Notes: generated by a model from the sequence alone, not told the origin. Numbered from the stretch's first letter, positions 51,210-62,569 are shown. The stretch is 64,000 nucleotides of DNA from Spirochaetia bacterium (GCA_963677925.2 CAXXYH010000003.1:1504001-1568000), one strand, 5' to 3'. Numbers and translations: made by a program.

Positions 51210-52439
51210 TTATATCAAAAACTTTCCGTCTTTTATAAGCCCGGTTCTTTTTCCGTCTCTGCCTACCGCAGTTACATCAACATCAGAACCGCCGATCATC
51301 ATATCTTCGTGAACCCCGGCTACATTCATTCCCATATCGAGCAGTTCATCCTTTGAGAAATTGCCTGGATTTTTCAAAGCCTTGGGAAATCCGGCGCCAA
51401 GTGCTATATGGCAGGCAGCATTCTCGTCATAAAGTCCATTATAAAAAACTATTCCCGGTTCAGCAAAGGGTGAGCATGGATCAACAAGAGCCAGTTCGCC
51501 AAGATACTTTGCACGTTCATCACGTTTAAAAAGATTTTCAAGAGATTCCTTACCCTTATCTGCTCCGAAATCAACAACCTGCCCGTCCTTAAACTCGAAC
51601 CAGGCGTTGACAGGTATATCACCCAGGTTCTGATGCATCACAAGCGGCCTGGTTAATGCGACCCTGCCGTCTACCCTTCTGCAATCAGGAACTGTGAAAA
51701 TTTCATCTGTCGGAATATTCGCAAGCCAGGATTCACCGGTACTAGATTTACCGATTCCGCCCAGCCATTTAACATCAGGATTAATACCAATCCTAAGTTC
51801 AGTACCAGGCCCTTTAAATTCTATATAGTCAGGAGAAAGCTGTTCAAGGTATTCTATTCGCTTAAGATCAACAGCGGCCTTATTTTTCCACCATTGAACA
51901 GGATCATCTTCATCAAGTCGCATGATCTTGATTATATGCTTCCAGTATTCAGCAACAGCGTCTTCCGGAGAAAGATCTGGAAAAGCCTTTATTGAGATGT
52001 CAACTGAGGGCATAAAGGTCAGAACCCATGGAAATGCACCCGCGAGACTCATCTCACGTTTGTAGGCAATAGCATCCTGACGGTCTCTGAAATATTCTGC
52101 CGAGACATCTCCGGAAAGGCCTGCATACGCATCGGTTTCACAATAACTTAGATAATGCACCGATTTCCACCCGGGGCCACAGGTTTCACGCATCCTTTTA
52201 TCGAAATATTCAGGATAATCCAGCTTCCTGTTCCCTGTTCGAATAGCTGCAGCATGTACAAAGTCATCAATATAAACAAGATCTACAAAGGAGGCTCCGG
52301 CTTCATAGGCTCTTTGAACAAGAACCTTGGCAGCGTCCCGGCAGTCATGGTTCAGCTGAAGAAAAAGCTTGTCGCCTTTTTTAAAGCTCACTCCGAAGAG
52401 CATTAAATCTGCTATCTTTTTGTAATATTCAGTATTCAT
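51210..52439 (-). CDS. Aminopeptidase, M29 family (AmpS/PepS-like)
   Basis: ANIPTDEIFTVP, LGELALV, LYDENAACHIALG, VHEDMMIG. Confidence 0.92.
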   Translation of the reverse strand: MNTEYYKKIADLMLFGVSFKKGDKLFLQLNHDCRDAAKVLVQRAYEAGASFVDLVYIDDFVHAAAIRTGNRKLDYPEYFDKRMRETCGPGWKSVHYLSYCETDAYAGLSGDVSAEYFRDRQDAIAYKREMSLAGAFPWVLTFMPSVDISIKAFPDLSPEDAVAEYWKHIIKIMRLDEDDPVQWWKNKAAVDLKRIEYLEQLSPDYIEFKGPGTELRIGINPDVKWLGGIGKSSTGESWLANIPTDEIFTVPDCRRVDGRVALTRPLVMHQNLGDIPVNAWFEFKDGQVVDFGADKGKESLENLFKRDERAKYLGELALVDPCSPFAEPGIVFYNGLYDENAACHIALGAGFPKALKNPGNFSKDELLDMGMNVAGVHEDMMIGGSDVDVTAVGRDGKRTGLIKDGKFLI

Positions 52440-52441
52440 TT

Positions 52442-52879
52442 TTATTTCACTTCCGCCGTTATACCTATCACTTCTTCAAGGATTTCGACAGCATCTTTTA
52501 TATATTTTGGACAGGTCTTTTTAATAACCTCTTTTTCCATTACTTCCATGGCATCCCTTCTGACAGAGAGATCATAACCAATCAGATCAGTACATTTAAG
52601 TGATGAATTTCTTTCAAGAAATTTATCCTTGAAGCGCTGCCACATTTCTTCTGCAGTGTCTTCATGGCCTACATTCTCCTTGTAATGAAAAATGACACAT
52701 CCGGCGCCGCTTACTGCCCCGCATTTTGAATGAGGAAGCCCCGGGAATTCACCGCATGAATGAATATACCTGTCTTCTTTAGGGCTGAGAATCTCATCCT
52801 TCTCAAAGGCACTGAAAACAGCCTTATCACAGTCGATACCTTTATTAAATGTTTCAATTGCTAATTCAGTTCTGTCCAT
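52442..52879 (-). CDS. C-GCAxxG-C-C family putative redox-active protein
   Basis: F..GIDC..AV, CGAVSG, SLKC.DL.GYDL, TCPKYI..AVEIL. Confidence 0.8.
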   Translation of the reverse strand: MDRTELAIETFNKGIDCDKAVFSAFEKDEILSPKEDRYIHSCGEFPGLPHSKCGAVSGAGCVIFHYKENVGHEDTAEEMWQRFKDKFLERNSSLKCTDLIGYDLSVRRDAMEVMEKEVIKKTCPKYIKDAVEILEEVIGITAEVK

Positions 52880-52957: not shown

Positions 52958-54340
52958 TCAAAGCATAAATTCTATTGTAAAAACAGCGCCGCCGTCATTA
53001 CGGTATTCAAGGTTGCCGCCCAGCTGTTCTGCAAGCATCCTGATAAGCATTAGTCCGAATCCGGTAGAATCCCCGGATTCTCCATCCGGAAGGCCCCGGC
53101 CGTTATCCCTTACGACAAGGCATGCAGTTTCATCTTTACTGCGGCTTACTGAAATTTCTATTATTTTCTCCCCTGACATATTCTTAAAGGCATATTTCAT
53201 GCAGTTTGTAACAAGTTCATTTATTATGATTCCAAGATGAAAAAGTTTACCGGGAGAAAGCTGAAAATCATCTATATGAGTCCGGATATCAACATCCCGG
53301 CTCTGATAAAAGACTTCAGTAATATCACCAATAAGATTGCTAAGATACACCGCAGACGAGGTCTCACGGAATTCTTCCGACTCAAAGAGACTTTCGTATA
53401 AAACCCGCAGGCTGCCTACTCTGCCTGCGGCATCCATAAGGGCAGTTTTCTCACCTTCATTAGCAGCTTCATCGCCCTGAAGCCTTAAAAGGCTTTCCAC
53501 CCAGGCCATATTATTTTTAATGCGGTGATGAACCTCACGAAGAATGAGGTCCTTTTCTTTTAACAGCGTCTCAATTTTGACCTCAGCCGCCTTACGGTCG
53601 GTTATATCTTCGATCTTTGCCATAATTCCGGTTATATTTCCATCGATTCTGATAGGGTTCAGACTGTATTCAAGGTAATGCTCACTTCCCCATTTACTTT
53701 GGTAGAGCATTGAATTTGACACAGGATCTTTAGTCTCTATCGTACGCCTGAGATCGCCGGAAAAGCCAGAGCTGACAAGCAGGGGAAAAGTAAGCAGATT
53801 AATTTTTTTAGTTTCTTCAATTGAAGGAGATCCGAGAAGTTCAAGCATTTTTTTATTGATTTCAATAATCTTTCCGTCAAGATTCGAGTAGACTATACCG
53901 GAAACAGAATGATCAAAAAGACTTCTGTACATCTGCTCGCTTTCTGCGAGCGCCTTCTCGGTTCTCCTGCTCTCGGTAATATCCTGAAGAACACCTACAA
54001 CCCTGTTTTGTTCCGGATCGAAATCGGCTACCGAGTGGATTACGGCAATACGGCCGTCATTCGGTCTCTTAATACTGAACTCAATATCATAGGTATCCGA
54101 GGCTCCGCTGACCAGATTTCTCATTTCGTCCTGAAGACTCTTCCTGTCTTCGGGAACAGAGATACTGCGAATCATTTCAAGTGAGAAATCCTCACCGGAA
54201 ATTCCGTATATATTCTGAGCTTCCTTTGATGCTGTAAATCTGGCGGAGGCCACATGGTAGACCCATGAGCCAACCCTGGCAAGCCGTTGTACCTTCTCAA
54301 AATAATCCGATGATCTCTCAAAGCGGTGATCATTATCCAT
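52958..54340 (-). CDS. Cytoplasmic PAS-PAS histidine kinase (HisKA_2 type), orphan
   Basis: ARVGSW, PAS/PAC (GVLQDITE, EDITDRK), EVHHRIKNN, INELVTNCMKYAF, DNGRG, GFGL. ATG 54340 preferred as start. Confidence 0.92.
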   Translation of the reverse strand: MDNDHRFERSSDYFEKVQRLARVGSWVYHVASARFTASKEAQNIYGISGEDFSLEMIRSISVPEDRKSLQDEMRNLVSGASDTYDIEFSIKRPNDGRIAVIHSVADFDPEQNRVVGVLQDITESRRTEKALAESEQMYRSLFDHSVSGIVYSNLDGKIIEINKKMLELLGSPSIEETKKINLLTFPLLVSSGFSGDLRRTIETKDPVSNSMLYQSKWGSEHYLEYSLNPIRIDGNITGIMAKIEDITDRKAAEVKIETLLKEKDLILREVHHRIKNNMAWVESLLRLQGDEAANEGEKTALMDAAGRVGSLRVLYESLFESEEFRETSSAVYLSNLIGDITEVFYQSRDVDIRTHIDDFQLSPGKLFHLGIIINELVTNCMKYAFKNMSGEKIIEISVSRSKDETACLVVRDNGRGLPDGESGDSTGFGLMLIRMLAEQLGGNLEYRNDGGAVFTIEFML

Positions 54341-54396
54341 CAGGGTTCCCTGTATCAATTATAATCCACATGGAATCTAAAAACAATAAGAGCCTC

Positions 54397-57300
54397 TTAA
54401 TAGTAATAATTCAGATACCGGACGATATTATACAGGAAGGGTATTCCATAATAATATCCGGGAACCTTATCATAAGCCCAATAGACAAATCTGTTCTGCC
54501 TTACAACTGTGTAATAATTCGAATAATCCGGATCATCAGCATAGAAATACGTTCCGTTTGTGCCTGACGAGTTGGAATTATACAAAGACCAGCGATGTGC
54601 AATACTGTAGGGATATCCTGTAGTTGAAGTAAACATAAGAGCGTCATAATCCTCAGTGTAAAGATAGCTGTCATACAGAGGTTTATAATACATATACCGG
54701 TGCCATATATAATCATATGCGGAAGAATAAGGCTTTATGTTGGCATACTGGGTATCACCCTTGGAGTACGCGTAGTCAAGATCAGTAGGAGCGACCCCGG
54801 AACCTATTGAGTTAAGGCCCAGACTTGTCCAGTTGTTTACAAGAGTCTGAAAGAAACGCCAGCCGTAGTAGTGCATTCCCATTACTCCGTGACCGCTGTA
54901 GGCAACATTTTTTGCCCTTGTTGTACTTGCATAGAGATTGGCAGCTGACGGAGTTATTATTATCGGGTCGCCGTAGATTACAGTTTCATCTACACCGTCA
55001 TCCTTAAAGGTAGCTGGAACCTCATCTTCGGGAATCATTGTCACAGTAAACTCAGTCCATGTGTACGAACCGTTCATAAAGACGTAGCTCGGGTTTGCTG
55101 ACACCCAGTCGGTTGTTATCCTGCTCTTAAGCAGGCTTGCAAGATCTGTATCATCAGGATCATCATCGTCGTATATAATAGTCATATCCGAGCTGTACCC
55201 CAGTGAGTAACTGCTGTAATTTGTGTAGCCTATTTCAGGGTTGTAAACACGGATAAACAGATAATACGGAACTCCCTCGGTATAATAGTCGCTGTAGCTG
55301 GCAGTACTTACTGTACTCCCCTTTGTATATTTTGTTCCGGTCGGACTTGTTGCATAGTAAACATAATATGTATTGCTGCTTGATGTATCATTTCCATACT
55401 CTTCATAGTGAGTTCTGATATAACCGTTTTTAGTGTAGCCCTTGTAGGAATTATTCATCACCGGTGTTCCGTAGAAGATTGCATCACTTACCTCGGTATA
55501 GTGTGCAGCCTCCTGGGTGACGGAATTTCTTGAGTAAACCCCGGCATAATCAGAGAACTGAACAATAACCTTCTTTGAACCGTAACCGCTGTATCCGCTG
55601 GCAGTACTCAGGCTCCAGGACATGCTGGAGGAGGCTGAATACCATCCTGACCAGGAGGAACCGCCGTCATTGCTGATACGCATATAGTTTGCGCCTGAGT
55701 ATGAACTGTTCAGCGTAGCCGAGGTACTGGATGCCACTGTGCTTCCGCTGTTTATACTGAATGAAGAAACCGTCGGCTCGGCGGTATCAAGGACTATGGA
55801 ATCATAGCGGCTGATAGACACATTGCCTGCGTAATCAATAAGTTCGCAGTAGACATACTTTGTACCGTCTGTAAGCGTTACATTACCGTTCGTAAAATTC
55901 CAGCTGCTCAGTGTTGAATTGTAGACATAGGTAAGGGTGCTTCCTCCGGAGTTCCAGAACCGCATGTATCTGATATCATTTCCGGTGTAGGTTTGAGAAT
56001 TGGAACCGCTGCCTGTAATGGCTATATCAACATACTGACTTACTGTATACGAAGTACTGTTGACGGCATTTGTGGACCTATTGCTCAATAAAATTGAACT
56101 TAGGGTCGGAGCAGTCGTATCTATTTCAAGAGCCCATGTCGCAGAGTTAGACCAGTTTCCTGCAGTATCGCTTTCCTGAACATAAAAGGTATACACACCT
56201 TCGGAGTTGGATGTGTTTATTGCTATTGATGTAGTATAGGTCCAGCTTGATTCATCAAAGCTCCACCGGTAGCTGCCGTTTCCGCCTCCGCCGGATGACC
56301 AGCGAAAATACGGGGTTGTATCATTTGAAAGGTGGTAGCCGTTGCTTGTTACGCTGTATCCGGTGCTGTAGGTGTACATTACAGGTGCGCCCGGAGCTGT
56401 TGCATCTATCTGAACCGTACTTGAGGCCACCTTGCCAACCCATGAGGTGTCGCTGATGTTGTATTCTTCAACTTCGATCGTATACACATCATCATCCAGA
56501 GGGCTTCCTCCATCATAGGTTGAAAAGTCGATCATCAGAGTCGTTACATCATCAGCCAGTGTTGTCCAGCCGGTCACTTCCGCGCTGGAACTGTCAAGAA
56601 GCCTGTACCGGTAACGTTCCGTTGCAGGATTTCCAAGTCCGGTTGACCAGTTCCATGTAACCTGCCTGGCGGTACCGTAGCTGTTTCGCAGATACTCTCC
56701 CTCCCGGTTGAGTGCGGGTTCAGAGGTAAAGTCGGTGTCTATCCAGATTGCCCGGCTGCCCGATGCCGACCAGTTTCCTGCGGCATCTCTTTCCTGTACA
56801 TACATTGTATATTCATATTCGTCGCTCAGAGCTGACGATGGATAGCCGGGATAATTCGTACCGGAGGGCTCAAAGCTGAGCGATGTTGTTTCCGTCCAGT
56901 CCACAATTACTGACGAGCTGCCGTAATATGCACCGCCGTCGCTTTCCCAGTACCTGCCGACTCTCTCAAGGCGGTATCGGAATGTACCGTTTCCATTGCC
57001 GGTTCCGTACCATGACCATGTGGGAGCAACATTAGGAGTATGCGAGATCCCTGATATTACTGGGGAGGAAGGAGGAGTTGTATCCCATTCAAAGCTGACA
57101 TATCCATCAGCGCTGTTGCCTGCCATATCGGTTACAGTCAGTTTCATTTCATACTGTCCGTCTTCGGATCCATCATCAGCAGCGGATACTGTCGGTATCA
57201 GCTGATCTGCGTTTGTTATTTCAAGTTTATCCGGAGAATCGGGGTCATCCTTATTCTCAACCCATAGGTAGGAAGCTATTCCGCTTCCTGCGGAACCCGG

Positions 57301-60288
57301 ATCATCAGGGTCGTCAGCGGTTTTCTGATCATAGGCCCGGCCGTCACCGGTATCGTTGTCATTATAGTATTTGATTGTAAAGGATGAATTCTTTGGTGAG
57401 ATATCCTGCAGTTTTTCAATTACAGGAGGAAGGGTATCGATCCAGAACTCAACCATCACGCTGCCGCTTCTGTTTGCCCTGTTTCCGGCATTGTCCCATG
57501 CTGTAACATAGAAATACACAGGACCGTCATTATCACCAAGGTTGGCAGGAGTCGGTGCTGAAATATAGGGAATATCCGAACGCATATAGTTTTTATTCTC
57601 GTAGCTTGCAGTATTATCCCAATCTACTTCGTCATCATCCCAGTGCGGATACCATCCGCCGACGCCATAGGCTACACCGGGATCCGTATTCGGATCGAGG
57701 GTCTGATAGTAAGGAATAGTGGTGTAAAAATCAGCTCCGTCTGCAGCAGCCCACACTATGTAGGGTATAGCTGATGAGGTATATGCCATTACAGCTGATG
57801 CTGATGTATTGAGCACAGTGTCATCCTGATTATAGGCTGTCAGGGTTCCGACATCGGCCGGATCAACTGTATCCCATACAAAATCAACTATGTTATAGCT
57901 TGAGTTTCCGGCATTATCGGTTGCGGTTACCTTTATCTCGTAGCTGCCGTCTTCACTTCCGTCCGAGGCTCCGGCCTTGATATAGGGCTGCTCAACGCTG
58001 CTGTCCCCGGTAGTTCCGGCACTGTCTGAATAAAAGGTCAGCGTCCCCGGACCGCTGAGCTGTTCCCATAGGTATGAAGCAATTCCGCTAGGAACCTGGT
58101 AGGCTTCAGAATCTACCGGGTGGGTATCTGTGATAGTTACTGTCTGCCGGATTATCGAGTTTGTTTCAAGGTAATCTGTATCTGAAAAAGATACAGAGGG
58201 CTCAGTGTAGTCAAGGATGACAACAGCGTAAACATCATTGGCACCTTCGTCCTGAAGTCCCGACAGATTACCAACATAATCCTTAACTTCAGCATAAACG
58301 TAGTACTGCCCTTCACCTGATGACAGAGCTACCTCGGGTTTAAGAGAGGACCAGGCCTCCCATGAGCCGGAATCGGAGGAAGGCATATTCAGAGCACTGG
58401 CGGCTTCCACCGACAGCCACATGTACTGAAGCCCGGACTGCAAGTCCTCGGCATCTATTACAACATTAACGGTTTCTCCGGAGTTGTTTGAGTACCCAGT
58501 ACCGTTATCGATCTGCAGACCGTTCAAAACAGGTGCAGTTGTATCAAGGCTGACTTTAAGTCTGCCCGGGGTTTCCGATTCATTATTGGCATAATCGACG
58601 AAGCGGTAGTAAATGTAGTGATCGCCGTCATTCGCCTGCAGTTCCCATCCTGCGGAAGCATATGCGGTATTGTAGCTCATGTAGTCTATACCGCCGCCCG
58701 TAGTTCCTCCCTCGGAGTACAGTTTCCAGGCGGCATCGCCTTCAAAAGTCGGGAAACCGGCGCCTATATTGTCGCCCCAGATCTTCACCGCACGGACACC
58801 GTTATAATCATCCTCGGCCTTAATCTCAAGATCAAAGGTAGCGGATGCTGTAGCATTGACCGAAGGTGAATCAAGATTCAGCACTATCACGCCCTCAGGC
58901 GCGGTATTATCCTCAAAGGCTCCGTTTGCAAAGCTGTAGGTGTAATCTGAACCTATTGCATTTCCTGCCACATCGGAAACAGTTCCGCTTATAAAGACAT
59001 TGTATTCAGTGCTCTGCTCCAGAGTATAGGATTCACCGCCCAGTTCGAATTCGGTAAACTCAATTCCGGACTTGTCGTCAATGTATTCATAAACCGAGGT
59101 TGAGATCTTCTGGATGCCCTTGGTAACATAGACAGTAGTGCTGTCTATTGTTGTTGTATCCATCTCTTCAGAGAAAACTACTTTAACATAGGCCTTTGTT
59201 CTGTTTCCGGTTGAATCAGGAACAGGGTTTGAAAGATCAAAGTCCACCTGAGGAGGTGTGAAATCATAAACAATGGAACTGGAAGTTTCCCCGGACTCAT
59301 TAAGAGCCGTGTCACGAACCTGCAGATAGAGGGTTTCAGTTTCATTTGTATTCACAGAAAGAGAGTAATCACTGATGCTCGTACTGCCGCCGTCCAGTGT
59401 CAGCCAGTCGCTCCAGCTGCCGCCTTCGGTTCTAATCCGGTAGTCGCCCATGCCGCTTCCTGTCTCTTCATCAACCCCCAGAATATCTATCGATATTTCA
59501 CTGTTGCGGGTTCCGGCTTTTCCGCCTTCAAGCGAGAACTGTGCAATTTCGGGCATGGTTGTATCAAGACCAATTGAATCGGAACCGTAGCCTGAAGATT
59601 CAAGCCCGGAACCGTCTTTCAGTTTCACATATACGGTCTTCTGGCCGTCGCCTTCTGGAAAGGTTATATCAAATGATGAGCTCCAGGTGATCCATCCTGA
59701 ATCAGAGAAGTTTCCGTTTGTTGAAATATTCATCTGGGCTATTCCGAAGTTATCAGTCGCATCAACCTCAACCGTAGCCGTAAGCTGGTTTGTCCAGGAA
59801 TCTCCGTTATTTATTGTGACTCCGGAAATAGCAGGCCTTACTGTGTCGCCCTCTATTCCCGTGGTAAAAGACCAAGTATAGACCTCGGATATAAGATTAC
59901 CGTCCAAATCCTTGATTCCGTTAATAGTGACTTCGTATTCTGTGCCGACTTCCAGTTCCGAATTTGGAATGAATGTAATGGTATCATTCTCAACTTTACG
60001 TGAACCGCTTATTGCGTTGCCGCCTGCATCTGTTACATAAAAACTTGCAGAAACTACTGTGCTGGAATCAATATACTTCGAGAAGGTCACAGATATCGTA
60101 CTCAGGTTAATAGGGACATCCTCAGTATCACGTTCCGGGTAGATTGAAACAACTTCCGGAGGGGAAATGGCCTTGTCCACATCCTCTTCAATATAGGCAA
60201 GCAGGGGATTTTTACAGCTGATAAAAACTGCGGATGCAGCAAGCAGCAGTACAGAAACAACTATCTTTATCATTGTAATTCTTTTCAC
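54397..60288 (-). CDS. Giant (~1960 aa) surface lipoprotein with tandem Ig-like (Big_5/SbsA-like) domains; putative adhesin
   Basis: Spirochaetal lipobox AVFIS-C. Big_5-like repeats (ISVTFS..ID..YTWSFTT; VVFSEEMD). Recurrent D-x-x-G-N and D-T-x-x-P motifs. Ser/Thr/Tyr-rich. GTG 60288 has a GAGGAG RBS. Confidence 0.85.
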   Translation of the reverse strand: MKRITMIKIVVSVLLLAASAVFISCKNPLLAYIEEDVDKAISPPEVVSIYPERDTEDVPINLSTISVTFSKYIDSSTVVSASFYVTDAGGNAISGSRKVENDTITFIPNSELEVGTEYEVTINGIKDLDGNLISEVYTWSFTTGIEGDTVRPAISGVTINNGDSWTNQLTATVEVDATDNFGIAQMNISTNGNFSDSGWITWSSSFDITFPEGDGQKTVYVKLKDGSGLESSGYGSDSIGLDTTMPEIAQFSLEGGKAGTRNSEISIDILGVDEETGSGMGDYRIRTEGGSWSDWLTLDGGSTSISDYSLSVNTNETETLYLQVRDTALNESGETSSSIVYDFTPPQVDFDLSNPVPDSTGNRTKAYVKVVFSEEMDTTTIDSTTVYVTKGIQKISTSVYEYIDDKSGIEFTEFELGGESYTLEQSTEYNVFISGTVSDVAGNAIGSDYTYSFANGAFEDNTAPEGVIVLNLDSPSVNATASATFDLEIKAEDDYNGVRAVKIWGDNIGAGFPTFEGDAAWKLYSEGGTTGGGIDYMSYNTAYASAGWELQANDGDHYIYYRFVDYANNESETPGRLKVSLDTTAPVLNGLQIDNGTGYSNNSGETVNVVIDAEDLQSGLQYMWLSVEAASALNMPSSDSGSWEAWSSLKPEVALSSGEGQYYVYAEVKDYVGNLSGLQDEGANDVYAVVILDYTEPSVSFSDTDYLETNSIIRQTVTITDTHPVDSEAYQVPSGIASYLWEQLSGPGTLTFYSDSAGTTGDSSVEQPYIKAGASDGSEDGSYEIKVTATDNAGNSSYNIVDFVWDTVDPADVGTLTAYNQDDTVLNTSASAVMAYTSSAIPYIVWAAADGADFYTTIPYYQTLDPNTDPGVAYGVGGWYPHWDDDEVDWDNTASYENKNYMRSDIPYISAPTPANLGDNDGPVYFYVTAWDNAGNRANRSGSVMVEFWIDTLPPVIEKLQDISPKNSSFTIKYYNDNDTGDGRAYDQKTADDPDDPGSAGSGIASYLWVENKDDPDSPDKLEITNADQLIPTVSAADDGSEDGQYEMKLTVTDMAGNSADGYVSFEWDTTPPSSPVISGISHTPNVAPTWSWYGTGNGNGTFRYRLERVGRYWESDGGAYYGSSSVIVDWTETTSLSFEPSGTNYPGYPSSALSDEYEYTMYVQERDAAGNWSASGSRAIWIDTDFTSEPALNREGEYLRNSYGTARQVTWNWSTGLGNPATERYRYRLLDSSSAEVTGWTTLADDVTTLMIDFSTYDGGSPLDDDVYTIEVEEYNISDTSWVGKVASSTVQIDATAPGAPVMYTYSTGYSVTSNGYHLSNDTTPYFRWSSGGGGNGSYRWSFDESSWTYTTSIAINTSNSEGVYTFYVQESDTAGNWSNSATWALEIDTTAPTLSSILLSNRSTNAVNSTSYTVSQYVDIAITGSGSNSQTYTGNDIRYMRFWNSGGSTLTYVYNSTLSSWNFTNGNVTLTDGTKYVYCELIDYAGNVSISRYDSIVLDTAEPTVSSFSINSGSTVASSTSATLNSSYSGANYMRISNDGGSSWSGWYSASSSMSWSLSTASGYSGYGSKKVIVQFSDYAGVYSRNSVTQEAAHYTEVSDAIFYGTPVMNNSYKGYTKNGYIRTHYEEYGNDTSSSNTYYVYYATSPTGTKYTKGSTVSTASYSDYYTEGVPYYLFIRVYNPEIGYTNYSSYSLGYSSDMTIIYDDDDPDDTDLASLLKSRITTDWVSANPSYVFMNGSYTWTEFTVTMIPEDEVPATFKDDGVDETVIYGDPIIITPSAANLYASTTRAKNVAYSGHGVMGMHYYGWRFFQTLVNNWTSLGLNSIGSGVAPTDLDYAYSKGDTQYANIKPYSSAYDYIWHRYMYYKPLYDSYLYTEDYDALMFTSTTGYPYSIAHRWSLYNSNSSGTNGTYFYADDPDYSNYYTVVRQNRFVYWAYDKVPGYYYGIPFLYNIVRYLNYYY

Positions 60289-60292
60289 CTGC

Positions 60293-62392
60293 CTACTCCT
60301 CTTCTTCATCCCAGAATGTCCGCCCCTTATCCAGCGCCGCCGAAGCCCTGACTATCGAGCTGTTTGTATTTCCGATATAGGTATAATTCTCTGCAAGTGC
60401 GGCGTTAACCGAAGTAAGTTCGGCAAAGTCCGCCTGGGCTTCATCAAACTGCTCCAGTTCAAACTTGGTCCTTGCAAGTCCGGCCAGAACAAGAGAGCTT
60501 TCCGGTTTCAGGTTCTTTGCCTGCTCGTACATCGAAAGAGCCTTGTCATAGTCGCCTTTCAGAAAGTAAATATTCCCCAGGTTGAAGGGAGGATTGTATG
60601 CATTCCGGTCAAGCCGGATGGCAGCCTGAAGCTGCTCTTCCGCCTTATCAAAGAGTCCGTATTTTCCATACAGAACCCCCAGGCTGTTGCGAACAGCAGC
60701 AGAATCACGGCGGCTTATACGGTCCTTGTAATATTCGACCTTGCTTCTGATTTCCTGGGAGACAAAGGCATCCAGGCTCTGGTTATAGTTTTCAATGATG
60801 TTTTCTGCAGAAGGATAGATAAGGCCGATGCTGCTGCCTGTAAATCCAACCGGTTCAAACTCCTGCCATGCAACATGAATAGGAAAAAAGCCGGCGGAAT
60901 TCTTCTTTACTGCGTCGCGCCACTGCTTTGCTGCGGTATCGTAGGCCTTCAGAAAGCCCTGCTGAATAAGAGTTATTTCAAGCGGAACCCAGGCTTTGCC
61001 ATCCATGTATATGAAGTTGTCTGTATTGGCAAATTCCTTTTGAGCATCCTCCTCGGTCAGGTCAAGCGAGAAGGCCATGAAGATATGGCCCGGAATCGTA
61101 ATAAATGCCGTCTCAATTCCAACCGATTCCAGCAATGCCGCCATAAGAATGGACAGGTCATCACAGTCTCCGGCTCTGTAGGTGAGTGACTGGGAAGGGA
61201 ACTGCAGATAATCCAGAAACAGGGAATCCTGCGAGGCTTCAATATACGAAGACTGTGGATCAATTACATAGTTCATGCCGTAAATACGGAGGGCTTCAAA
61301 AACACCTATGGCGATGCGGAAGTTCAGGTTCAGCGGATTTTCACCAAGATCACGAATAAGCCCTGCTGTATTCTTAGAAAAGATAAGCACAGTAGGGTCT
61401 CTGGGAGTAACAAATGAGGCAGCCTTACGATCATCATCCCAGGTCATACTGTTGCGGTCAAGAATTCTTATAGTGTGAGGCTTCACATACGTAAAACGCT
61501 CCCCCAGATAGGTGTATTCAACCCTTATTTCAGCAGAAACCTTCGAGCTTTCAGTAAGATTGAGGATACGGTTTGTAAAAAGCGCATGAAGATCGACTTC
61601 AACAGCTTCATTTCTGGCAAGGGAATCTATACTTCTGCAGAGCATGGGCTGCTCCATGTACTCGCCTACATCGAGGTAAACATCAACATTGGTGATGGAA
61701 CTGGTTTCATTATTCTGCAGAACCATGGTTCCAAGTGAGTTGTTCTCATAATAGCTGTAAAAAACAGGAAAGACAGGGTCTGTTCTGAGTTCTGAAACAC
61801 CCAGCTTCTGACGTCCCGATTCAGGATTAAACCTTATTACACCGCCCAGCCAGGCGCTGACTCCCTGATAAAGATCAGTAAACTCATTAGCAGCCGAGTC
61901 CCAGCCGAGGTGATAGCGGTAGACACCGCCGAAGGTTGTAGCAAAGGTAGGAGAAACATCCCATACTATAGAAGCTTTGCCTCCGAAGTAGGGGTTGAAT
62001 GCGGAATTTCCGTCCTGGTAATAGGCATATGTGCCGCCGACATCCGGACCGGCCTGAAGACTGATAACGTCTGCAATCCTCAGGTCCATCCCGATACCGG
62101 TACCAACCGACCCGAGGGTCAGTATCTGAGCCTGACTCGGTTCCAGCGCAATGCTTGAGTTCCCTTCCAGGTACATGAATGAAACATTCGGAAAGATATA
62201 CTGGCCGGTAATACCAACTGAGCCTCCGATAAGATAGGCGGCATCATCGACAAAAAGGGAACTGCGTTCCCCTACCGGTATCTCAACTGACGGCTTGATG
62301 TGCAGGGAAAAGTCTTCAACCGACTGAGCGGATACAGTCAAAACGGCGGCAGCAAACAGAGTTATTATGCAAACGGTTTTTCTTTTCAACAT
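60293..62392 (-). CDS. Multidomain exported protein: beta-barrel-like N-terminus, Ig-like domain, transglutaminase-like domain, C-terminal TPRs
   Basis: Signal peptide. Amphipathic strands ending VSAWLGGVIRF. YLQFP.QSL..RAGDCDDLS, PGHIFMAF, WVPLEIT. TPRs NSLGVLY.., FNLGNIYF..GDYDKAL. ATG 62392 has a CAGGAG RBS. Confidence 0.82.
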   Translation of the reverse strand: MLKRKTVCIITLFAAAVLTVSAQSVEDFSLHIKPSVEIPVGERSSLFVDDAAYLIGGSVGITGQYIFPNVSFMYLEGNSSIALEPSQAQILTLGSVGTGIGMDLRIADVISLQAGPDVGGTYAYYQDGNSAFNPYFGGKASIVWDVSPTFATTFGGVYRYHLGWDSAANEFTDLYQGVSAWLGGVIRFNPESGRQKLGVSELRTDPVFPVFYSYYENNSLGTMVLQNNETSSITNVDVYLDVGEYMEQPMLCRSIDSLARNEAVEVDLHALFTNRILNLTESSKVSAEIRVEYTYLGERFTYVKPHTIRILDRNSMTWDDDRKAASFVTPRDPTVLIFSKNTAGLIRDLGENPLNLNFRIAIGVFEALRIYGMNYVIDPQSSYIEASQDSLFLDYLQFPSQSLTYRAGDCDDLSILMAALLESVGIETAFITIPGHIFMAFSLDLTEEDAQKEFANTDNFIYMDGKAWVPLEITLIQQGFLKAYDTAAKQWRDAVKKNSAGFFPIHVAWQEFEPVGFTGSSIGLIYPSAENIIENYNQSLDAFVSQEIRSKVEYYKDRISRRDSAAVRNSLGVLYGKYGLFDKAEEQLQAAIRLDRNAYNPPFNLGNIYFLKGDYDKALSMYEQAKNLKPESSLVLAGLARTKFELEQFDEAQADFAELTSVNAALAENYTYIGNTNSSIVRASAALDKGRTFWDEEEE

Positions 62393-62420
62393 TTCAGTTC
62401 TCCTGATAAAGCTGTACACG

Positions 62421-62451: not shown

Positions 62452-62569
62452 AATATATTACAATTTTACTAGTTTATAAACAAAAAGATCAAATTACTGG
62501 TATTAATTTCAATACCAGAGCCTCAATTTCCGGCAGATTCATTTTATCGGCCGTTGGCCGAATTTACCC

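Follow-up and report, generated by a model that had tools for sequence, protein, structure and literature searches.

A spirochaete gene cassette that pairs a predicted outer-membrane-anchored transglutaminase-like/TPR protein with a giant lipoprotein carrying a helical N-terminal tag

LapG is a periplasmic protease that severs the retention module from the giant adhesin LapA, and this LapG–LapA(–LapD) release is found in Pseudomonas and Legionella. In Bacteroidota, a short acidic motif of a few residues directly after the lipidated Cys is an export signal that marks a subset of lipoproteins; we know of no link between this signal and a neighbouring dedicated gene. Slam proteins have TPRs at the N-terminus and a 14-stranded DUF560 barrel at the C-terminus and lack an enzyme domain, and their genes adjoin those of lipoprotein clients, with paralogues differing in client specificity (excerpts of a review; PMC7857515). 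The same excerpts describe complexes of RcsF with OmpA, OmpC or OmpF made by BAM, and note that spirochaetes have no known homologue of Slam and are expected to have a new system (PMC7857515). A homologue of LptD has been proposed for lipoprotein flipping in Borrelia, according to part of a preprint (10.1101/2022.12.21.521298). How spirochaetes place, hold or release large envelope lipoproteins is the open question on which the present locus bears. The window analysed here is a stretch of 64,000 nucleotides from a Spirochaetia bacterium (GCA_963677925.2 CAXXYH010000003.1:1504001-1568000), and positions 54397..62392 of its minus strand hold two adjacent genes. Gene 1 encodes a predicted outer-membrane-anchored transglutaminase-like/TPR protein and gene 2 a giant lipoprotein. 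We find that together they form a real, widespread and apparently undescribed cassette; literature searches, which did not cover supplementary files, gave no prior description, in agreement with the sequence-only reading that had called the pair an undescribed system.

Two open reading frames were found on the minus strand, at 60293..62419 and 54397..60309. The most likely start of gene 1 is the ATG at 62392, which has AGGAG 6 nucleotides upstream, and the gene ends with the TAG at 60293-60295, giving a product of 699 residues (60293..62392) supported by homologues and by a model with a pLDDT of 90. Gene 2 (54397..60288) starts with the GTG at 60288, 4 nucleotides past the TAG of gene 1, and encodes 1963 residues up to its end at 54397; alternative starts are the ATG at 60273 and the ATG at 60309, which overlaps gene 1. 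The GAGGAG that precedes this GTG sits within the last codons of gene 1 and, with the GTG spacing, marks gene 2 as translationally coupled to gene 1. The coordinates, the 4 bp spacing and the second ribosome-binding site inside gene 1 had been given correctly before the present analysis.

The AlphaFold model of gene 1, built from an alignment of 54 homologues (pLDDT 90, pTM 0.77), and a model of its middle part alone, from an alignment of 22 sequences (pLDDT 91.5), contain every part that had been read from the sequence, namely a signal peptide, a barrel, an Ig-like region and TPRs. The signal peptide (residues 1-23, ending in TVSAQ; 62324..62392) is modelled as a helix at 2-23. It is followed by a predicted OmpA/NspA-like β-barrel (residues 25-190; 61823..62320) whose eight antiparallel strands, at residues 28-187, place gene 1 in the model with the OmpA, NspA and OmpW type of small barrel. 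VIA matched this barrel to NspA with a Z of 18.6 (root-mean-square deviation 2.4 over 150 residues), OmpA (16.8), OmpW (16.5) and PagL (16.1), and Foldseek gave a TM of 0.77 to NspA. In small barrels whose strands are even in number, both ends lie on the periplasmic side, so the Ig, enzyme and TPR parts that follow should hang beneath the outer membrane. With just eight strands the barrel offers no pore for exporting a polypeptide; it is better seen as an anchor, and gene 1 was rejected as an export pore, which makes the earlier suggestion that the partner is exported through gene 1 itself unlikely.

An Ig-like β-sandwich is modelled at residues 197-317 (61442..61804), and its VIA matches to β-sandwich domains include the C-terminal barrel domains of TG2 and factor XIII. 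A WDDDRK motif (residues 318-323) follows it, with W318, D319-D321 and K323 invariant among the 54 homologues. The predicted catalytic domain comes next (residues 321-511; 60860..61432). The only matches listed by VIA for its core are proteins of the transglutaminase fold, namely 3kd4 (Z 10.8), TglA (9.1), LapG (9.1, over 140 aligned residues), 3isr (9.0), PNGase (8.8) and PeiP (8.1), and these modelled similarities are moderate yet mutually consistent. Foldseek matched the middle part to TG2 and TG3 at an E of about 1e-4, and the Pfam model Transglut_core (PF01841) aligned with residues 408-480 (E 2e-4). The model has the papain-like α/β core of the transglutaminase-like superfamily, with Cys410 opening a helix at 410-423. 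When the middle part was searched by sequence against the PDB, the best match was LapG (chain 4u65_E; E 0.12) across the GDC[DE]D active-site stretch and a transglutaminase-like protein was also matched, both weakly (E 0.11 and 0.12); the profile of full-length gene 1 had TPR proteins alone among the 60 matches listed. Among curated models, only the N-terminal region of NCBIfam NF058533 (antiphage_ProA) gave a significant sequence match to the Ig-plus-enzyme module, aligning with residues 229-506 (E 5.8e-15).

Within the catalytic domain, the motifs GDCDD (408-412), PGH (434-436) and WVPLE (468-472) supply Cys410 at the N-terminus of helix 410-423 (codon 61163..61165), His436 (codon 61085..61087) and Glu472, the putative third member of a triad (codon 60977..60979); all three codons were checked. 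These residues are invariant in 54 of 54 members of the alignment and in 22 of 22 members of a family set that includes paralogues at 26-35% identity. Across the latter set, the enzyme domain is the most conserved part, with a mean pairwise identity of 0.50, and the barrel is the least (0.26). The apparently intact Cys-His-acid set that had been noticed earlier thus appears as an invariant putative triad on a predicted transglutaminase fold, and the absence of a barrel or a triad from the models, named in advance as a reason to abandon the idea, was not what we found. An invariant triad of this kind implies that some reaction follows.

The enzyme domain is followed by a long linker helix (529-561) and three TPRs (565-687), together at 60332..60808. 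The TPRs were recognized by Pfam (TPR_1, E 8e-14) as well as in the model, and VIA aligned them at Z 15-16 with peptide-binding TPRs, namely those of Sti1/Hop, CHIP, PP5 and Sgt2. Asn569, Asn604 and Asn607 are invariant among the 54 homologues. The protein ends in a conserved acidic tail (...FWDEEEE; 60296..60331): a Trp and an acidic run close the protein in 20 of the 22 family members, and W694 is at least 90% conserved among the 54 homologues. This tail directly follows a TPR domain whose structural matches Hop/Sti1, CHIP and PP5 bind acidic C-terminal peptides, and the tag of the lipoprotein, described below, is likewise acidic (I-E-E-E-V-like). The tail might be a switch bound in the TPR groove, or might link molecules head to tail.

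Gene 2 begins with a signal peptide ending in a lipobox (AASAVFIS–C, Cys25; 60214..60288), from which lipidation is predicted. Directly after the Cys lies the N-terminal tag, an acidic motif with the pattern of an amphipathic helix, KNPLLAYIEEDVDKAISPPE (60154..60213), that is common to partners of different folds. Pfam searches with the whole protein and with overlapping pieces of 280 residues identified Big_5 twice, Big_13, PKD-like, Big_3_2 and Y_Y_Y in an Ig-like region of about residues 46-1600 (55489..60153). The remaining Tyr-rich C-terminal region (about residues 1601-1963; 54400..55488) has no family match, the last 360 or so residues giving none in Pfam at E 0.05, and it is conserved, with alignments of orthologues reaching residue 1962. 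Leads for this region from a protein atlas (DUF4960, 0.95; fn3-bearing clusters, 0.92) were weak, with low counts of shared features, and were not used. Orthologues of gene 2 with 1766-2000 residues follow the orthologues of gene 1 and align with it over the full length at 31-50% identity. Gene 2 had been taken for a lipoprotein with many Ig-like repeats; the lipobox and the Ig-like domains over some 1600 residues bear this out, but self-BLAST at E 1e-3 revealed no internal sequence repeats, so the domains are divergent and not tandem copies.

The tag is the newly recognised core of the cassette, as judged from the partner sequences. Its motif, C-x-N-P-L-L-D-x-I-x-E-E-V, starts at the lipidated Cys, with hydrophobic residues at +5, +6, +9, +13 and +16/17 and acidic residues between them, a pattern that predicts an amphipathic helix of about 14-17 residues capped by Asn-Pro. 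Across 22 partners no column but that of the Cys is invariant; a consensus from 46 partners is partly circular because these were chosen by the tag profile itself. A profile made from 20 partners of other genomes was run over the 363 lipobox candidates of this genome: gene 2 ranked first (11.9 bits) and the partner of a second gene 1 paralogue ranked second (10.5 bits), with the next candidate at 7.8 bits. This ranking means that the tag is not a general trait of lipoproteins and belongs to these cassettes. Beyond the tag the partner bodies are unrelated, comprising Big_5, Big_13, PKD, β-helix, FG-GAP, LVIVD, Flg_new, fn3, Big_2 and β-propellers. The 'partner adhesin' of the sequence-only reading therefore survives in part: the pairing is conserved, but what the pairs share is the short helical tag and not an adhesin body, the folds being very different.

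The pairing of the two genes is conserved well beyond chance, as far as gene order and sequence can tell. All three family copies in this genome adjoin genes for large lipoproteins; the second has a gene for a lipoprotein of 719 residues just upstream, and two lipoprotein genes, for products of 1257 and 1447 residues, come after the third. A first set was taken from the 20 best-scoring stretches with flanks, which represent nine related genomes and 22 family genes and were picked by score and room on the contig, not by their neighbours. A lipobox gene was present within two genes of the family gene in 22 of 22 copies, directly downstream in 17, directly upstream in three and convergent with one gene between in two, so that 20 of the 22 partners are directly adjacent on the same strand. 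An independent set was drawn from the best 80 of the at least 573 relatives found by a pattern scan of one genome per species; removal of six that repeated contigs already used left 74 loci, of which nine lay too near a contig end and 65 could be assessed. The automatic test looked for a same-strand lipobox Cys with a tag of at least 3 bits within −200 to +700 nucleotides of the stop codon. It was passed by 44 of 57 barrel-type members and by none of the eight barrel-less ones (Fisher p 4e-5, a value that is too small as the relatives are not independent), where about 0.03 is expected by chance for any lipobox candidate in such a window. As a control, four of the 147 non-adjacent lipobox candidates in the same loci reached 3 bits, two of them being further cassette partners and a third possibly another. 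These counts answer the question, posed by the sequence-only reading, of whether homologues of gene 1 are consistently accompanied by large, variable lipoproteins. One family gene can also precede two or three tandem lipoprotein genes with near-identical tags (L025:4285-9010, minus strand; L090:8461-11233), so the ratio is not always one to one.

The family to which gene 1 belongs is large. Among 8000 candidates scored, 1760 homologues were found at E ≤0.001, and the 120 listed are mostly of about 700 residues; those with a named source are all labelled as spirochaetes except for one partial protein labelled Bacteroidales. A profile of the Ig-plus-enzyme module found 4759 representatives at E ≤1e-3, and 1791 at E ≤1e-30, in a library clustered at 50% identity. 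The best 80 of the relatives from the pattern scan come from metagenome-assembled genomes labelled Spirochaet-, Treponemataceae or Sediminispirochaeta, with one Planctomycetota and a few labelled 'bacterium' only. Strong matches (E <1e-40) occur in 22 of 41 genomes, comprising this one and 40 relatives, and are often multicopy, the present genome having three. None of the Pfam and NCBIfam models searched covers the barrel, Ig and enzyme parts of the family above its cut-off. A quick maximum-likelihood tree built from 96 enzyme modules places gene 1 in a clade of 20 rows (SH-aLRT 97), 16 of which have a partner of at least 1600 residues; the other four have a shorter frame of 631-1104 residues that starts with the same tag, two of these frames being cut off by a contig end and one by a stretch of N.

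Several variants of gene 1 were seen. The barrel-less relatives retain the Ig-plus-enzyme-plus-TPR unit, with the barrel replaced by an N-terminal WD40 propeller (L058:3361-6453, L067, L070 and L082), by a long TPR array (L081:5216-8509 and L061) or by a low-complexity stretch, the barrel-less loci also including L054 and L056. In the third cassette of this genome, a WD40 propeller protein of 698 residues with a signal-like N-terminus is encoded just upstream of the family gene (G000:C4:2023934-2026030; L106:10935-13031, minus strand); as such a propeller is elsewhere fused to the same module, this neighbour hints at a functional link. Among the longer family members (P0205, P0207, P0220 and P0176 among them), three carry, beyond the TPRs, an acidic proline-rich linker and an additional C-terminal domain of about 170 residues, one has several barrel-like segments in tandem ahead of the enzyme module and one has extra N-terminal TPRs. 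No fusion of gene 1 with a tagged partner ('Rosetta stone') was found among five long relatives.

Taken together, these observations lead us to favour, tentatively and at somewhat less than an even chance, a reading in which an enzyme tethered to the outer membrane on its periplasmic side docks on the tag of its cognate lipoprotein and then processes the tether, probably by cleavage as in LapG and LapA. The two genes would then be one cassette of a large spirochaete family. The small eight-stranded barrel would insert the gene 1 product into the outer membrane and hold the Ig-like domain, the transglutaminase-fold Cys-His-Glu enzyme and the peptide-binding TPRs just beneath it, on the periplasmic side. 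Gene 2 would be the cognate lipoprotein, which after lipidation would be moved to the outer membrane, where its lipid-anchored N-terminus would display the acidic amphipathic tag on that side of the membrane. As the sole feature common to the clients, the tag is the likely recognition element. Gene 1 would dock on it through the TPR groove or the neighbouring helix. The cysteine enzyme would then act on the adjacent tether, the likeliest reaction being a cut that frees the protein from its lipid anchor, comparable to the removal of the retention module of LapA by LapG, and such a cut would control the retention or release of the Ig-repeat protein. A wider proposal, which we regard as rather doubtful, is that this is a form of tag-directed lipoprotein handling peculiar to Spirochaetota, in which a helical 'address' after the Cys is read by a dedicated enzyme-bearing outer-membrane factor, one per cargo, as a device, or part of one, to display, fix or shed large surface lipoproteins, a task for which spirochaetes have no known machinery. 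In this proposal the conserved acidic tail of gene 1 (W-x-E-E-E) may compete with the acidic tag for the TPR groove as a built-in switch.

Several observations weigh against cleavage of the tether by gene 1. The Transglut_core match scores 21.9 bits, just under the Pfam cut-off of 23, and the putative third triad residue is Glu472 and not the usual Asp. The LapG family model Peptidase_C93 (PF06035) matched neither gene 1 nor anything in the whole genome, and its control was matched in Caulobacter; by sequence, gene 1 falls outside the LapG family. The tag has no invariant scissile residue, and no LapG-type Thr-Ala-Ala-Gly site occurs in the first 136 residues of the partner; a helical tag with a hydrophobic stripe would fit docking better than a protease site. 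That each cargo has its own copy of gene 1 points to a stoichiometric partner and not a turnover enzyme. As to the pairing, the 40 best tag scores listed for this genome do not include that of the third paralogue's partner, and 13 of the 57 barrel-type loci did not pass the automatic test. On visual inspection, eight of these 13 have a lipoprotein nearby, with a weaker tag, a lipobox missed by the filter, a partner about 1 kb further away or a divergent gene, and five have none or could not be judged. The counts also overstate the statistics, because related genomes are not independent.

The closest competitor to cleavage is possible, if less probable in our view: gene 1 may be a sorting or assembly adaptor and not a protease, reading the tag and holding or handing over the lipoprotein at the outer membrane, either as a Slam-like escort to a translocon or in a stable barrel–lipoprotein complex, with the Cys site secondary or regulatory. 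The helical amphipathic tag suits docking, and the TPRs with their invariant Asn569, Asn604 and Asn607 resemble those that bind peptides. One gene 1 paralogue serves each cargo or small set of cargoes, and the partner bodies are typical of surface proteins. According to the review excerpts, Slam genes likewise adjoin those of their lipoprotein substrates and none has been found in spirochaetes (PMC7857515), and gene 1 itself has a weak match to TPR_Slam (E 0.0037, under the cut-off). Yet the invariant triad, within the most conserved domain of the protein, argues for catalysis as the core function; an eight-stranded barrel has no channel for a polypeptide, and no translocon gene is linked to the pair among the flanking genes. 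Cross-linking ranks next and appears unlikely. Here the enzyme would join the lipoprotein covalently to gene 1, to another envelope protein or to peptidoglycan, and so fix the giant protein in place. The fold resembles that of the true transglutaminases TG2 and TG3 down to the β-sandwich before the core, and a one-to-one gene ratio fits a single-turnover reaction, but the tag contains no invariant Gln or Lys and most of the matched bacterial structures of this fold are named hydrolases or putative proteases. That the genes are unrelated neighbours or belong to phage defence, the pairing having no direct biochemical meaning, is very improbable, since adjacency and tag are seen again in different paralogues and families much more often than chance would give, and since the ProA match that suggests defence covers just positions 12-291 of the 1903 in that model (53.8 bits against a cut-off of 1500) and PADLOC matched neither protein.

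Around the tagged pair, a Pfam scan of the flanking genes identified electron-transfer flavoprotein (ETF) subunits, a PAS/HisKA_2 histidine kinase, a C_GCAxxG protein, an M29 peptidase, a PfkB kinase and an OpuA-type ABC transporter, which by their sequences are unrelated housekeeping genes. The scan found no type I secretion system (T1SS), LapD-like, translocon or other secretion gene near the cassette, the rest of the genome not having been searched for LapD or T1SS; within these flanks, the absence of T1SS and LapD asserted by the sequence-only reading was confirmed. Upstream of gene 1, a consensus scan gave two overlapping, weak promoter-like pairs of hexamers (62452..62492, minus strand; 9 of 12 positions each). 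The histidine kinase gene (52958-54358, minus strand) lies on the same strand and starts 39 nucleotides 3' of gene 2; no clear terminator separates the two, and the kinase gene may be co-transcribed with the cassette; it is not kept beside the cassette in other genomes. The M29 aminopeptidase and C_GCAxxG_C_C genes (51210-52879, minus strand) lie downstream of the cassette here and upstream of it in three close relatives (L007, L008 and L009), which looks like local synteny with rearrangement and not a functional link.

The cassette provides a large uncharacterised family, a short tag that predicts clients from their sequence alone and an invariant Cys as handles on the handling of envelope lipoproteins. 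The family has so far been seen in environmental (free-living) spirochaetes, so its bearing on pathogens is indirect.

Compared with described proteins, gene 1 matches ProA (NF058533) through the N-terminal region of the latter alone, and literature searches found no paper on anti-phage ProA. The putative protease BDI_1141 (3kd4), TG2, TG3 and factor XIII are the best structural matches of the core (3kd4 at Z 10.8) and share the arrangement of a β-sandwich plus core; they differ in being only 7-16% identical and in lacking a barrel, TPRs and a lipoprotein partner, and the triad acid of gene 1 is Glu. The export signal of Bacteroidota also follows the lipidated Cys, but the tag is a predicted helix of about 14-17 residues and, by the profile run over the 363 candidates, is seen only beside members of the gene 1 family. 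RcsF, as described in the review excerpts, resembles gene 2 in that a lipoprotein associates through its N-terminal segment with an outer-membrane barrel, small or of the porin type, but involves no dedicated enzyme, helical tag or gene-by-gene pairing (PMC7857515). Slam, on the same source, is likewise an outer-membrane protein with TPRs and a barrel that is encoded beside its lipoprotein clients (PMC7857515). The barrel of gene 1, in contrast, is N-terminal and has eight strands, with the cysteine enzyme between barrel and TPRs, and SlipAM (PF04575) did not match gene 1, which is not a Slam; a genome search for PF04575 also found none, but says little as its control matched nowhere. The nearest likeness is to LapG and LapA: in both cases a transglutaminase-fold cysteine enzyme of the periplasm (here inferred) would act at the N-terminal end of a giant envelope repeat protein (here proposed), and LapG (4fgo, 4u65) shares the predicted fold at the Z of 9.1 given above, with its GDC[DE]D stretch aligned. 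Gene 1 differs from LapG in being fused to its own barrel, Ig domain and TPRs, in having no LapD, LapE or T1SS gene near the cassette and in being present as one enzyme gene per cargo, and gene 2 differs from LapA in being a lipoprotein without the Thr-Ala-Ala-Gly site in that N-terminal stretch, and not a T1SS substrate. If the favoured reading of tag-directed cleavage is true, the idea of LapG would be extended to lipoproteins and to a fused, membrane-anchored form.

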